Source: a phage
Length of the DNA: 64,000 bases
Direction: 5' to 3' (one strand)
NCBI GenBank assembly: GCA_033648345.1
Contig: GCA_033648345.1_4121.1
In this document: positions 21,975 through 60,897 of the stretch, piece by piece
Layout of the letters: every line of letters starts with the position of its first letter
Position numbering within the stretch: the stretch's first letter is position 1
The notes under the pieces: model-generated
What the model saw: the letters and a program-made list of their open reading frames with translations, nothing else
What the model was told of the DNA's origin: nothing
Database searches by the model: none
Program-made: the position numbers and the translations under genes

Positions 21975-22403
21975 ATGAATATCGAACAAACTATCCGTAA
22001 CCACTCTTTCTTCGCTGCTGAAACTGGTCGTGTAATCGAGAGCGTCAAAATTGAAGAACTGATGATTAACGTTAAATATAAAGAACTGAATGATGAGATT
22101 AGCAGCACCATTTGTGCACTACGTGCTCCATTCCGTTCTGAAGCAGCTAAGAAACCTGCCTATGTACTGGCGATTGCATTGGGTTGTGTAGTGAAATTGG
22201 TCGTTGATGAAAATCAACTAAATATCAAAGTTGCTCCAACCAACGATGAAGAAAACATCGACCTGAACTTTGAAGGTAATCTGGCTGAAGACGTATTCTT
22301 CCAACAATCACTGGTTTATGATTTCCGTACTGTAACTCATGACCACATCAACTTTGTCAATGAGATGGTTGACATTGTAGCTGAATACGAAGCTTCCCTA
22401 TAA
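21975..22403 (+). CDS. FQxS-module family protein (paralog family, see findings)
   Basis: C-terminal AEDVFFQQSLV. Confidence 0.5.
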   Translation: MNIEQTIRNHSFFAAETGRVIESVKIEELMINVKYKELNDEISSTICALRAPFRSEAAKKPAYVLAIALGCVVKLVVDENQLNIKVAPTNDEENIDLNFEGNLAEDVFFQQSLVYDFRTVTHDHINFVNEMVDIVAEYEASL

Positions 22404-22416
22404 TTAGATTAACAAA

Positions 22417-22438
22417 AGCCTCCGTAATGGGGGCTTTT
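22417..22438 (+). terminator. rho-independent terminator
   Basis: agcctcc-gtaat-gggggct hairpin then TTTT. Confidence 0.55.
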
Positions 22439-22458
22439 CCAACATAAGGATATGAATA

Positions 22459-23010
22459 ATGATTGACCAAATTAAAATCCTAACTGAACAAATCACTGAT
22501 TTTCTAGCAGATAAAGATGGATTCAGTACTGAAGTTAAAATGCATGGTGTTAGTCTCGATGTAACTGCACCAAATGGCGAAACAACCAATTATGATATGT
22601 ATGAAATCCTACTTTATACATTGGCTGTTCGTAAACTTGGTAGTGATATTGAACTAAACATTAACAAAACCGAGAACGGTGACCAAGTGTTTGCAATTAA
22701 CACTGGTGCACAAATGGACGTAGTAGCTGAAATCAACAAGATCAACCAATCTTTTGTGGGTTTCAAGCATGATACAATCCAATCTGTGTTCCTGGGTAAA
22801 CAAACCGGAAACAGCCACTGTCCTTATTGTGTAATGACAACCTATAAGAATGGTAACTGGATGCGTCAGGATCTAGTGCTTGCTGAAATGCTTTATGCAA
22901 TCACACACGGCCTAGAACTTGAACTTGATGATAGCGTGTACTGTTTCAAGAAAATCCGTAAACTTTCTGGTGATATACAAGCTCAATTAAAAGAATTAAA
23001 TGATAAATAA
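22459..23010 (+). CDS. hypothetical protein
   Basis: 183-aa ORF. Confidence 0.5.
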   Translation: MIDQIKILTEQITDFLADKDGFSTEVKMHGVSLDVTAPNGETTNYDMYEILLYTLAVRKLGSDIELNINKTENGDQVFAINTGAQMDVVAEINKINQSFVGFKHDTIQSVFLGKQTGNSHCPYCVMTTYKNGNWMRQDLVLAEMLYAITHGLELELDDSVYCFKKIRKLSGDIQAQLKELNDK

Positions 23011-23122
23011 TTATACCAGTAATGGTTAACATTATCATGTTACTTTCCTCCCTTACATAATAATGATGCGTTATTATTTTATTGTATTATTCCCCTTTTT
23101 CGTACAAAATCTTTTTCGTACT

Positions 23123-23146
23123 GCCCCGACCTTCGGGGCATTTTTC
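23123..23146 (+). terminator. rho-independent terminator
   Basis: gccccg-acctt-cggggc hairpin then ATTTTTC. Confidence 0.6.
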
Positions 23147-23167
23147 TTGTCTAAATTTTGAGGTTCT

Positions 23168-23563
23168 ATGAATAATACTATTGGTAGTACAATATCTAAA
23201 CCACTCTCTTATTACCTTGAAAAATTCAGAAGTACAAATGGTAAAAAATTTAATGGTATATACCAATTCTCACATAAAGAATATATCACAGTTGATTGTT
23301 ATTCAAATAAACTTATGTACGTAGATGATACTGAATACTGTATGAAATTGTCATTGGATGTAGAATTAGATAAGTTAACATTTATTGAATATACATCCAA
23401 AAGAACATCATTTCTTGGGAAATGTAATCGAAAAGTATATAAAAATATTTCAATGTACTTAAATGAAGATTACCACTTCCAACAAACAACGATTGAAGAT
23501 GTTCTATTCAGTACTGAAGAATTGAAAGAACTATATTATTGGTATAAGAAATTTACAACTTGA
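23168..23563 (+). CDS. FQxS-module family protein
   Basis: C-terminal EDYHFQQTTI. Confidence 0.5.
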   Translation: MNNTIGSTISKPLSYYLEKFRSTNGKKFNGIYQFSHKEYITVDCYSNKLMYVDDTEYCMKLSLDVELDKLTFIEYTSKRTSFLGKCNRKVYKNISMYLNEDYHFQQTTIEDVLFSTEELKELYYWYKKFTT

Positions 23564-23618
23564 CATTATCGTGGATTTATCCTACACTGTAAGATAATGA
23601 TGAATAGAGGATAAATTT

Positions 23619-58495: not shown

Positions 58496-58523
58496 TTGAC
58501 ATAAGATATCAGTACTGTATAAT
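58496..58523 (+). promoter_or_regulatory. early promoter (cassette-type)
   Basis: cTTGACAtaagatatcagtactgTATAATg. Confidence 0.55.
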
Positions 58524-58616
58524 GTTTATATCAAAGGGAATGCAGTGAAAGGAAAGACAGCATAATCGTACTCGTCACTGCGTTTCCACCCTTTTAAATT
58601 AAATGAGGAATTAACT

Positions 58617-58925
58617 ATGTTTCAAACTAACACTCAAGGTTTTGTAATCATCGATTTGAACCAAAACAGCGGTTATTGGATGAAACCTACTGACGCATGT
58701 ATGCAGTTTGATTTTTTAGGTTACAGGATTAGTGTAAGTACTGGTGCTTCTGTACTGCGTGGTGGTTGTATCGTTGAACATCTGGTAACTGATCCAGAAG
58801 GTCGTGAGTATGAAATCGCAGGTTCAGTACAAGATGCCATTATGTTTGTATGTCAGCGTGAAATGAATAGTTCGAATTCAAATGCACTGACTCATGCTCT
58901 TTCTCAAGAAGTGGAGGTTCGTTAA
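58617..58925 (+). CDS. hypothetical protein
   Basis: 102-aa ORF. Confidence 0.4.
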   Translation: MFQTNTQGFVIIDLNQNSGYWMKPTDACMQFDFLGYRISVSTGASVLRGGCIVEHLVTDPEGREYEIAGSVQDAIMFVCQREMNSSNSNALTHALSQEVEVR

Positions 58926-59176
58926 TGAAATATATCGTAGCAGTACTCGTTGCATTTTTACTCACTGCATGTGACGCTTCAACAAAAGAACGCACAAGTG
59001 ATTTTATTCTCCCTATTGAATTACAAGAAGCAGGATGTAAGATTTATCGTATGCAAAAGGACGGTGCTGGTGTAACCTTGTATACAGTTTATTGCCCTAA
59101 TGCAAATACCAGTACTGGATACAGCAGCGGTAAAACACGAATCAATACTTCAGTGATTAATGGAGTACAACAATGA
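58925..59176 (+). CDS. putative lipoprotein
   Basis: MKYIVAVLVAFLLTAC: signal peptide with lipobox L-T-A-C. Confidence 0.45.
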   Translation: MKYIVAVLVAFLLTACDASTKERTSDFILPIELQEAGCKIYRMQKDGAGVTLYTVYCPNANTSTGYSSGKTRINTSVINGVQQ

Positions 59177-59541
59177 GCCTTGATACAACCCGTGCAACAG
59201 ATTTATTAACTCGTCTGAATGATGAAGAATATCTTGCTGAAATAAAGTACAAGCTTGAAAAACTGGCTCGAAGTGCTGAAGTAATTGAAGTTAAAGGTCA
59301 TTTACCTATGGATCAATTCCATACGTTCAAAGAAGATATGGTTTATTATCCAAATGAAATTTGGATTGAGTGGGAACATTGGACTAACAAAACTCTACGC
59401 ATTGAAGGTTATTGTGTGAATTATGAATCTGAACCTGGTGATGTTACAAAAACTCTCTCAATTTGGTGTACAAAAACACATGAACTCGTTGAGGTGAATT
59501 TGAATTATATGAAAGGTTTCCGTTGGGGTGATGTTAAATGA
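59173..59541 (+). CDS. hypothetical protein
   Basis: 122-aa ORF. Confidence 0.4.
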   Translation: MSLDTTRATDLLTRLNDEEYLAEIKYKLEKLARSAEVIEVKGHLPMDQFHTFKEDMVYYPNEIWIEWEHWTNKTLRIEGYCVNYESEPGDVTKTLSIWCTKTHELVEVNLNYMKGFRWGDVK

Positions 59542-59813
59542 TTAAAAAACTATTGACAGTTGTCTTTGTATTATGTACAATGTTTCTTACAGCATGTAAT
59601 GATGACGGAAGGTTTAGTGCAAAAGACTTAGTTCGTCAGGATTGTACATTCACAGGTAAGTCTTTTATTAACGAGTATGAGGTATGTACACAATCAGGTC
59701 GTATCTGTGGTGGTTGGGAAAAACGTCAGGAGCGATTGTATGTATATGAATGCCCTGGTCATCTCAACAAAGTACTAAGCACACACAAACTTGTTTATGA
59801 TAAGGTTGAATAA
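59538..59813 (+). CDS. putative lipoprotein
   Basis: MIKKLLTVVFVLCTMFLTAC: signal peptide with lipobox. Confidence 0.45.
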   Translation: MIKKLLTVVFVLCTMFLTACNDDGRFSAKDLVRQDCTFTGKSFINEYEVCTQSGRICGGWEKRQERLYVYECPGHLNKVLSTHKLVYDKVE

Positions 59814-60028
59814 TGACTACCAATGAAATGATGCAGGTTATTTGGGATAAAGGTTGTGATATTAAAATCACTAGTACTGATGTTCGTGTATTCAAAACTG
59901 AATATATGGAGTACTTGGACCTTGATACTTATAATAATATTGTATCAATTGAACACAAAGGTGCAGTACTGGAAACAATTGACGTAGTACTGAAGAAAGC
60001 TACCGACCTATTAGGAGCGGCAGTGTGA
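59813..60028 (+). CDS. hypothetical protein
   Basis: 71-aa ORF. Confidence 0.35.
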   Translation: MTTNEMMQVIWDKGCDIKITSTDVRVFKTEYMEYLDLDTYNNIVSIEHKGAVLETIDVVLKKATDLLGAAV

Positions 60029-60181
60029 ATAACAAAGAGTGGGAAGAGTACCGTAAGAAGTGCAGGGAGTTTGATAAAGAACTAACTGGTACAGTGAATG
60101 CAGTAATGTGGGTATCTGTAATTATTGCAGTTCTTGCGTTGGGTGCTATTATTATTAATAAATTATTCTAAGGCGAATATC

Positions 60182-60382
60182 ATGTTTACTTTATATCTCG
60201 CAGTAGTTCTCACCAATGGTGAAATCACTCGTACTATTGGTGAAGGTGTATATAAAACACCAGACCAGTGCTACTCTGCTACTCATTGGCCTCGCGATAG
60301 TGGGGATGAAACTCGCACTGAATTCAAATGCATGAAAGTAAAAGGTGATTTTGTTAACCTTAAGGTTATCGAGGCGAAATAA
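60182..60382 (+). CDS. hypothetical protein
   Basis: Start at ATG after AAGG RBS (ORF-track start 60125 is less likely). Confidence 0.35.
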   Translation: MFTLYLAVVLTNGEITRTIGEGVYKTPDQCYSATHWPRDSGDETRTEFKCMKVKGDFVNLKVIEAK

Positions 60383-60897
60383 TGGATATTAATGAGTTGT
60401 TGATCTTATTGTTTAATCGTGGAAATGATGTAAGACGTTCTGAATATCAAGACAAAATTCACATTGAAACTGATAAATGTTATGGTAAAACAACTCATGA
60501 GATTTTGAAGCCAAATGGCAAACGATATGCCGATGTATGTTTTCATGAACGAAGTGATGGTAGTGAAATAATCAGTACTGAAATTGTGTTTTATGATAGA
60601 TCCTCGGCAGGTTCGTATGAAATAGAACTTATATATTGTCCTGGTTCAGAAACACACAATAAACGTCAGATATTATATGATGTTTATTCACCTCCAGGTG
60701 TAGCTGAATATTTTGTTATTGATTACAGTACTGAAGAAAGTGTGTTTCAACAGAGCTTGATTCATAACTTCCAGTTGAATGATCCAAATGTACCAAAGTT
60801 GTTCAAACTACTCGATACTATCGATGTTGATTTTGAATTTGTTATGTGCATTAGAACTTCCTTGATCGATGAATTTATGGAACTACTTAATATATGA
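60382..60897 (+). CDS. FQxS-module family protein
   Basis: TEESVFQQSLI. Confidence 0.5.
   Translation: MDINELLILLFNRGNDVRRSEYQDKIHIETDKCYGKTTHEILKPNGKRYADVCFHERSDGSEIISTEIVFYDRSSAGSYEIELIYCPGSETHNKRQILYDVYSPPGVAEYFVIDYSTEESVFQQSLIHNFQLNDPNVPKLFKLLDTIDVDFEFVMCIRTSLIDEFMELLNI

Follow-up and report, generated by a model that had tools for sequence, protein, structure and literature searches.

Why should a phage carry, within a single stretch of its genome, at least 21 small genes whose products share variants of one short motif? This question is raised by a window of 64,000 nucleotides (nt) of phage DNA, the whole stretch analysed here (GenBank assembly GCA_033648345.1, contig GCA_033648345.1_4121.1). 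A preliminary description of this window had listed 21 such open reading frames (ORFs) between positions 21975 and 60897 and had seen in their C-terminal motif, of the type T-E-E-x-[FY]-F-Q-x-S-[TL]-[VI], a common docking, targeting or processing module attached to unrelated N-terminal domains, as in packaged internal proteins or polymorphic effectors. The feature is real and bigger than first noted: these ORFs belong to a paralogous family, referred to here as the TEExFFQxST family, which extends well beyond the window and whose kind, a viral multigene expansion, is familiar although the family itself is undescribed.

Membership was established with profiles. A loose regular expression retrieved 15 plus-strand ORFs carrying the motif, and a hidden Markov model (HMM) built from the C-terminal segments of these seeds was searched against all 244 window ORFs of at least 50 amino acids (aa), on both strands. 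It found the 15 seeds and six further ORFs (starting at 21975, 45306, 23168, 40927, 29286, and 30121), with E values from 3e-6 to 4e-3. The next match is clearly separated from these, at E=0.22, and no minus-strand ORF had E <0.9. Full-length HMMs returned the same 21 ORFs, as did a profile made solely from paralogues of the related phage ph0011 (E 1e-19 to 4e-10). These are exactly the 21 ORFs first listed, in the same clusters; the ph0011-derived profile adds a 22nd, 36102-36506 (E 5e-9, next match 0.036), which is borderline with HMMs made from the window only (E 0.22 and 0.027). At the conserved residues, synonymous codons vary (F, TTC 8 and TTT 12; Q, CAA 12 and CAG 6; S, AGY 9 and TCN 6), which indicates selection on the peptide, as had been proposed. 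These varied codons, together with the clean E-value gap between members and non-members, rule out a DNA-level repeat or a chance motif. Both the HMM searches and the alignment bear out a true paralogous family whose best-conserved part is the C-terminal motif. The latter is positionally homologous across members, starting 75-107 residues after the N-terminus; its distance from the C-terminus, about 35-85 residues, spans a somewhat wider range than the 25-60 first given. Of note, this is the sole paralogous family detectable in the window, where no pair of non-family ORFs is similar at E<=1e-4.

The view that the N-terminal regions are unrelated did not survive closer comparison. They are of uniform length (75-107 aa) and, once the motif is removed, some pairs are still similar: 43867/44276 (E 7e-6), 35557/36906 (2e-4), and 45306/45791 (3e-3). 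The most similar pairs are neighbours or near-neighbours, pointing to tandem duplication. An alignment of 116 sequences displays conserved core positions in the N-terminal part (I/L9, L13, Y/F36, I52, I54, Y56, D70, and I74) and a conservation peak at T97-E98-E99-x-[FYL]-F102-Q103-x-S105-[TL]-[VI]-x-D109, followed by [ILF]113-[TS]-[YF]-[ED]-[DE]. With the 21 paralogues as sole alignment, AlphaFold2 (AF2) predicts a single domain for 43867-44283 (predicted local distance difference test, pLDDT, 84; predicted template modelling score, pTM, 0.77). This model consists of a helix at residues 2-15, six strands within residues 23-91, a well-packed helix 98-107 that corresponds to the motif (pLDDT about 90), a helix 115-125 formed by the 'LTFDDI' stretch, and one last, short helix. 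A second model (25257-25712), made from a deeper and noisier alignment of 94 sequences, has a pLDDT of 65 and repeats the C-terminal half, i.e., strands followed by two helices; the fold searches relied on the first, better model. The family is thus predicted to be one globular alpha-beta6-alpha-alpha domain, homologous end to end, and not a shared module joined to unrelated domains; the modelled sheet is a six-stranded antiparallel meander and the signature a helix-loop-helix that follows the last strand.

Within this putative hairpin, T97...E100 and T114...D117 have the appearance of ordinary helix-capping boxes of the S/T-x-x-E type, and F102, V/I107, I/L113, and I121 that of anchors in the core. 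E98, E99, Q103, S105, and D109 would then be conserved polar residues for which no structural reason is obvious. Two other readings of the signature were considered and rejected. Protease sites of the tobacco etch virus (TEV) type follow the pattern E-x-x-Y-x-Q, to which E-E-x-[YF]-F-Q bears some likeness; since the motif is modelled as a packed helix with no exposed linker and the proteins are not virion components (see below), this is best taken as coincidence, and the processing site initially suggested falls with it. Similarly, the D-[FM]-G-x-[LV]-T-[FY]-E stretch resembles an EF-hand but misses the acidic ligand positions 1, 3, and 5. The proteins are mostly acidic, with a median isoelectric point (pI) of 4.7, compared to 6.2 for similarly sized window ORFs outside the family. 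In three members, the domain is followed by a C-terminal extension of 30-50 residues, helix-like and K/E-rich in 28777-29289 and strongly basic in 35557-36105 and 36906-37409, which lifts their pI to 6.3-9.4.

In which phages is this family found? A megablast search of segments 24000-30000 and 43800-46700 against GenBank phages returned only 37 records, of 310-386 kb and with 84-96% identity, all of them Asteriusvirus phages that infect Escherichia or Salmonella (121Q, PBECO4, phAPEC6, G17, ph0011, and others). On this sequence evidence, the window is assigned to a jumbo myovirus of E. coli, with a genome of 350 kb, that belongs to the 121Q/PBECO4-like Asteriusvirus, within the RaK2-like group. 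In the complete genome of ph0011 (348,217 bp), an HMM iterated to convergence (E<=1e-3) identified 60 family ORFs, none of them on the minus strand: 33 at 30.7-55.8 kb, 23 at 282.9-324.1 kb, the counterpart of the window, and four singles. phAPEC6 has 56 members, 21 from gp054c to gp134c and 35 from gp418c to gp466c. Genome-wide, the family therefore amounts to about 60 genes in two arrays, or roughly 10% of the gene count. The second, larger array lies outside the window (33-44 ORFs; 30.7-57.6 kb in ph0011 and 296.7-318.0 kb in phAPEC6), and its members often differ after the motif (EEYYFQQS[TL][IV]Y.E.VLD; AELFQ.SLVFDKKY.CT), suggesting subfamilies.

In a wider survey, an exhaustive HMMER search of 1.84 billion representative sequences yielded 104 proteins at E<=1e-3, all with the motif, 62-195 aa in length and mostly matched near full length; among the divergent homologues, some trace to phage EJP2 or Erwinia phage Hallingskeid, and others have no counterpart in a cultured phage. 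A back-translated DNA pattern of the strict motif (37 bits) was also used to scan genomes. In 2.9 million IMG/VR contigs it occurs at 17 loci, 16 of which are in RaK2-like genomes of 345-378 kb, 121Q and RaK2 included, each with 1-10 HMM-positive ORFs, while the remaining locus, on a 24.5-kb contig, has none; the RaK2 loci hold at least 17 family members. Across 185,579 bacterial and archaeal genomes, the strict motif gave nine matches, none convincing and about as many as expected by chance from a hand estimate of its information content, so that bacterial homologues were rejected. The best of these, a 61-aa chromosomal ORF of Pantoea rwandensis (NZ_MLFR01000023.1, 6137-6322 of the extracted stretch), reads PTEEMYFQLSTI followed by a helix-like stretch, with an HMM E value of 1.2e-5; having been selected by the motif scan, it may be a chance match or a remnant. 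These searches confine the family to RaK2-like jumbo phages, of which it is a hallmark expansion. With many clustered paralogues that are restricted to one lineage and kept by selection, it is a viral lineage-specific multigene expansion.

The family matches nothing already described, in agreement with the preliminary description, and profile searches revealed no known widespread domain with an assigned function. Pfam gave no significant match for 10 members and no recurrent match for 94 (61 weak families, each with a single member); NCBIfam gave no match, and neither did PDB sequence profiles (best E 0.76). In PHROGs, 10 members fall into 10 different groups of unknown function (among them phrog_24941, 24510, 30841, 30548, 38573, 22160, 17453, 24027, and 28118), whose cross-matches are weak (E 1e-8 to 1e-2) and limited to the motif region; individual orthologue sets are thus already held there, yet the family is not united. 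In a BFVD fold search, all matches came from RaK2, CBB, and relatives and were themselves uncharacterised; a tblastn search with the consensus of the HMM gave no match, probably through low-complexity masking, and a repeated homologue search with a larger alignment added little. The clade genome papers that were searched do not describe the family, those on Sharanji and fEgEco12 mentioning no paralogous family. The analogy with polymorphic effectors is not borne out: Pfam detects no toxin or delivery domain in the family, and the members have neither a trafficking domain nor a paired immunity gene, the neighbouring genes being more copies of the family.

Are these proteins part of the phage particle? 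The jumbo phage phAPEC6 has a capsid inner body, and its virion proteome comprises 62 proteins detected by mass spectrometry (PMC7247149). Within the depth of the mass spectrometry, none of its 56 family members is among these 62 proteins, while the products of two genes with homologues in the window are: 48341-49156 (+) is homologous to gp078c and 49201-50358 (-) to gp077. The parallel first drawn with packaged internal proteins is thus not supported. In addition, no terminal targeting sequence was found, the conserved element being 75-107 residues away from the N-terminus, inside the packed predicted helix. The gp078c and gp077 homologues lie well inside what is presumed to be the early region and have no Pfam match, and 49201-50358 is the sole sizeable minus-strand gene in the surveyed 21-62 kb. 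The virion does contain another group of paralogues, the 'DNA condensation proteins' of about 40 kDa (phAPEC6 gp003-010, gp549, and gp551); in ph0011, this 'DNA condensation'/RCC1-like set is found at 340.3-346.6 kb on the minus strand. As constituents of the capsid inner body, its members are more plausible than the TEExFFQxST family.

The transcriptional context of the genes is also informative. Nearly all window genes are on the plus strand, which carries 33 sigma-70-like sites matching TTGACA-N16-18-TATAAT at 11 or more of 12 positions, versus none on the minus strand and 3.2 +/- 1.8 in simulation; perfect consensus sites number 10, versus 0.13 expected. Such a host-type promoter array is unusually dense. 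A phage sigma-70-family factor is encoded in the window as well. In phage CBB, the homologous region was proposed to be an early region on the same grounds (PMC5259590). Together with this proposal, the sigma-70-like sites support early transcription by the host RNA polymerase, and the proteins are probably produced at an early stage of infection. As for selection, the median ratio of nonsynonymous to synonymous substitution rates (dN/dS) between orthologues is 0.20 against ph0011 and 0.25 against phAPEC6, compared to 0.15-0.16 for non-family neighbours, and median amino-acid identity to phAPEC6 is 75% versus 87.5%. Family genes are therefore under purifying selection and evolve somewhat faster than their neighbours.

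Being probably early and absent from the virion, the family would most likely be a diversified toolkit for host manipulation. The explanation that we favour, and that we regard as about an even call, is that one lineage has expanded a protein-binding domain, cytoplasmic and for the most part acidic, which is made early and devoted to host takeover or counter-defence; we infer this function, including the early timing, the protein-binding role and the diversity of targets, from genomic context and from analogy with the multigene families of other large viruses. Under such a scheme, successive tandem duplications in the RaK2-like/Asteriusvirus clade would have multiplied the family, its arrays lying in the early region of small genes, where the host sigma-70 RNA polymerase would transcribe them right after DNA entry. 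The proteins would remain cytoplasmic and unpackaged, each paralogue binding a different protein of the host or of a rival element via divergent sheet and loop surfaces, and the paralogues as a set would give the phage a range of tools for taking over the host or countering defence. The conserved hairpin, with its two capping boxes and four hydrophobic anchors, would be the folding core, its polar residues perhaps serving in addition as a shared contact site.

Several points weigh against this explanation. The virion proteome may have missed low-copy small proteins, the promoter-like sites are consensus matches only, and dN/dS is barely above that of the neighbours, with no strong arms-race signal among orthologues. 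Moreover, the second AF2 model is poor across the N-terminal 50 residues, and acidic binding is not a universal property, since a few members have a neutral or basic pI (6.3-9.4). Finally, the clustering of nine conserved polar residues in one patch fits a single common partner better than a purely structural role.

This last point leads to the main rival, which we consider rather unlikely overall, namely that the paralogues are adaptors with a common dock: the invariant acidic helix (TEExFFQxS...D) would plug all of them into one machine, such as the phage Clp system, the host RNA polymerase, or the ribosome, while the variable sheet would select clients. The nine polar residues all cluster in the helix-loop-helix, the remainder of the protein keeping hydrophobic core positions only, and about 100 representatives, although very divergent, have retained the motif. 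Clp may be an attractive candidate, as ph0011 encodes ClpP (84302-84997), a 762-aa Clp ATPase (170840-173128), and a ClpS-domain protein (259249-259794), which according to the deposited annotation could form a complete phage-borne proteolysis set. However, T97/E100 and T114/D117 fit ordinary N-capping boxes, making the conservation partly structural, and the link to Clp is one of co-occurrence in a 350-kb genome only. The more specific version, in which roughly 60 paralogues act as combinatorial adaptors with one docking helix on a single machine (e.g., ClpP/Clp-ATPase/ClpS) and divergent sheets that each capture a different host protein for destruction or re-routing, is less probable still; if true, it would parallel, in a bacteriophage, the way in which poxviruses and giant viruses have expanded their ankyrin/F-box and BTB substrate adaptors.

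Alternatively, the arrays could provide poly-immunity, each paralogue acting as an immunity-type inhibitor, or antitoxin, against its own toxin or abortive-infection effector, in the manner of SUKH/Imm arrays. The arrangement of the genes, in tandem and devoid of partner genes, with small products that diverge in sequence but share a fold, does resemble such loci, and an early gene position is in keeping with this. There are also single weak Pfam matches to SUKH_6, CdiI_4, and NGO_1070-like (E about 0.02), but these are at noise level (one of 94 members each), and no SUKH/Imm family was matched by profile or fold. In addition, the family is absent from bacterial genomes, the usual home of immunity families, and we find this possibility doubtful.

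Equally doubtful is that the proteins are divergent homologues of p32/gC1qBP/MAM33 (PF02330; PDB 1p32 and 3qv0), which would make them acidic trimeric chaperones that bind basic nucleic-acid-binding proteins and thereby act as nucleic-acid mimics. Human p32 is the best structural neighbour by two methods, and accounts for the four best Foldseek matches in the PDB, at non-significant E values (0.05-0.16) and a TM of about 0.35. Like the family, in which the majority of members are acidic, p32 is small and acidic, and its order of elements, alphaA, beta-meander, alphaB, and alphaC, is that predicted for the family. It differs in having seven strands instead of the six modelled here and in lacking TEExFFQxST and any detectable sequence similarity, and the structural scores are low; p32 is also a doughnut-shaped homotrimer with a strongly acidic face, whereas the family is seen here as a monomer model only. 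Furthermore, hhalign of the family profile against human p32 gave a probability of 0.04 and aligned the 'FQ' dipeptide alone, and none of 94 members matched MAM33 in Pfam at E<=10. Membership of MAM33 by sequence was rejected on the hhalign result, p32/MAM33 being retained as the closest fold resemblance of the model and not as a family assignment.

The weakest alternative, that of packaged internal or inner-body proteins with a shared motif for capsid targeting or processing, is disfavoured and very improbable: the inner bodies of other jumbo phages, such as phiKZ, are indeed formed by paralogous families, phAPEC6 has such a body and the motif superficially recalls a protease site, but the phAPEC6 virion contains a different paralogous set and no family member, the motif is in a confidently packed predicted helix, neither at a terminus nor in a linker, and the genes are among sigma-70 promoters, apart from late genes.

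The members in the window and several promoter-like sites that directly precede members are listed in Table 1. Some of the listed starts are those of maximal ORFs, and annotated homologues suggest later ATGs for 24016, 24416, 35557, 45306, and 46155.

Table 1. TEExFFQxST family members and selected sigma-70-like sites in the window (seed search: retrieved by the regular expression, or E value with the seed HMM; last E value: ph0011-derived HMM)
Positions	Strand	Feature	Length (aa)	Motif or site	Seed search	E, ph0011-derived HMM	Remarks
21975..22403	+	member	142	AEDVFFQQSLV	3.2e-6 (seed HMM without this ORF)	2.9e-14	
23168..23563	+	member	131	NEDYHFQQTTI	3.7e-5	8.4e-13	
23619..24029	+	member	136	SDESLFQRSLI	regular expression	1.9e-12	
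24016..24435	+	member		TEESFFMNSTV	regular expression	1.6e-15	maximal ORF, true start probably ATG ~24031; homologue P0010 is 134 aa
24416..24811	+	member	131	EEDELFQLSLI	regular expression	1.4e-12	
24808..25263	+	member	151	TEEGYFQESLV	regular expression	1.6e-14	
25257..25712	+	member	151	TEEALFQLSTV	regular expression	4.6e-14	most acidic (pI 4.05); second AF2 model
28777..29289	+	member	170	SEEEFFQRSTI	regular expression	9.7e-15	K/E-rich helical C-terminal extension
29286..29741	+	member	151	NDEYVFQQSTV	1.2e-3	3.6e-11	
30121..30564	+	member	147	LEEMYFQQLTV	4.4e-3	1.7e-16	
34956..35348	+	member	130	SEEDEFQKNTT	regular expression	3.8e-10	
35557..36105	+	member	182 (maximal ORF)	TEEERFMLSTI	regular expression	3.4e-14	basic C-terminal tail; homologue is 162 aa
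36102..36506	+	22nd member	134	SVEEEFQYNLL		5e-9	
36906..37409	+	member	167	DEDVHFQESLV	regular expression	4.1e-14	basic C-terminal tail
39795..40160	+	member	121	TEEEYFQTSTV	regular expression	6.7e-17	
40927..41310	+	member	127	DEADEFQKRTV	2.5e-4	1.5e-11	
43867..44283	+	member	138	TEEKFFQYCLV		4.7e-13	modelled representative, AF2 pLDDT 84, pTM 0.77
44276..44641	+	member	121	TEESLFQYSMI		2.5e-15	tandem duplicate of 43867, N-terminal similarity E 7e-6
45306..45782	+	member		TEDMYMQLNFV	7.4e-6	3.1e-16	maximal ORF (GTG), true start probably ATG ~45366 (138 aa); homologue P0001 is 138 aa
45791..46195	+	member	134	DEDMFFQLSTL	regular expression	1e-19	
46155..46604	+	member	149 (maximal ORF)	TEEEHFMDSTV	regular expression	2.7e-14	
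60382..60897	+	member	171	TEESVFQQSLI	regular expression	3.1e-12	orthologue of phAPEC6 gp054c
21680..21709	+	sigma-70-like site, 11/12		TTGACA-18-TACAAT			upstream of first cluster
39736..39763	+	sigma-70-like site, 11/12		TTGACT-16-TATAAT			32 nt upstream of 39795
43458..43485	+	perfect sigma-70 consensus		TTGACA-16-TATAAT			precedes tRNA-Thr and the cluster at 43.9-46.6 kb
45286..45315	+	sigma-70-like site, 11/12					just upstream of probable start of 45306/45366

The window has other features of interest. A C5-cytosine DNA methyltransferase gene (26370-28250) is split by a 340-aa intein (about 26601-27620; Hint and LAGLIDADG), whose insertion point directly follows GGFP in the catalytic motif, with CQAWS as the next residues of the extein; this intein is missing from phAPEC6 and several close relatives, in which the methylase has 287 aa and megablast coverage drops to 83%. 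Two tRNA genes that are interspersed with the family clusters, tRNA-Ser(GCT) at 41338-41427 and tRNA-Thr(TGT) at 43777-43850, flank a NUMOD4-HNH homing endonuclease gene (41649-42173). ph0011 has extra tRNAs (Ser, Ile, Asn, and Arg) at the same place, indicating that the tRNA block varies among relatives.

About one gene in 10 of a well-known group of coliphages that are therapeutic candidates and of Klebsiella phages (121Q, PBECO4, phAPEC6, RaK2, GAP32, and CBB) belongs to one family, which no database recognises as such. Dozens of 'hypothetical proteins' per genome would thereby become one testable problem, with a sharp signature, a model fold and, in the invariant E98, E99, F102, Q103, and S105, a direct mutational handle. 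Should the paralogues be target-specific inhibitors of host or defence proteins, or adaptors of one machine, much would be learned from them about new mechanisms of phage-host interaction; this could also help explain the use that jumbo phages make of their extra coding capacity.

How does this family compare with known systems? The T4 internal proteins and phiKZ-type inner-body proteins are packaged and cleaved at an N-terminal targeting sequence. Like the family, these sets combine a short conserved element with otherwise diversified sequences; unlike them, the TEExFFQxST proteins have as conserved element an internal C-terminal helix, and no member was detected in virions. For the same clade, a 2013 paper gives a figure of the same order of magnitude as the size of the family (PMC3622015), with no definition of the family, its motif, its fold or its distribution, and BLAST-level paralogy would join small subgroups only; in view of the RaK2 loci, the TEExFFQxST family probably accounts for much of that figure. 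The closest parallel in kind is the zinc-ribbon expansion of Bacillus phage G, which at ~35 copies was called unprecedented, in a survey where the present family is not mentioned (Iyer et al., 2021; PMC7824862). In both cases, a small domain is found in tens of clustered copies in one jumbo-phage lineage. The two expansions differ in fold, in clade and in size, the TEExFFQxST family exceeding the zinc ribbons with its about 56-60 copies, and for both the function is presumed to be regulatory or conflict-related.

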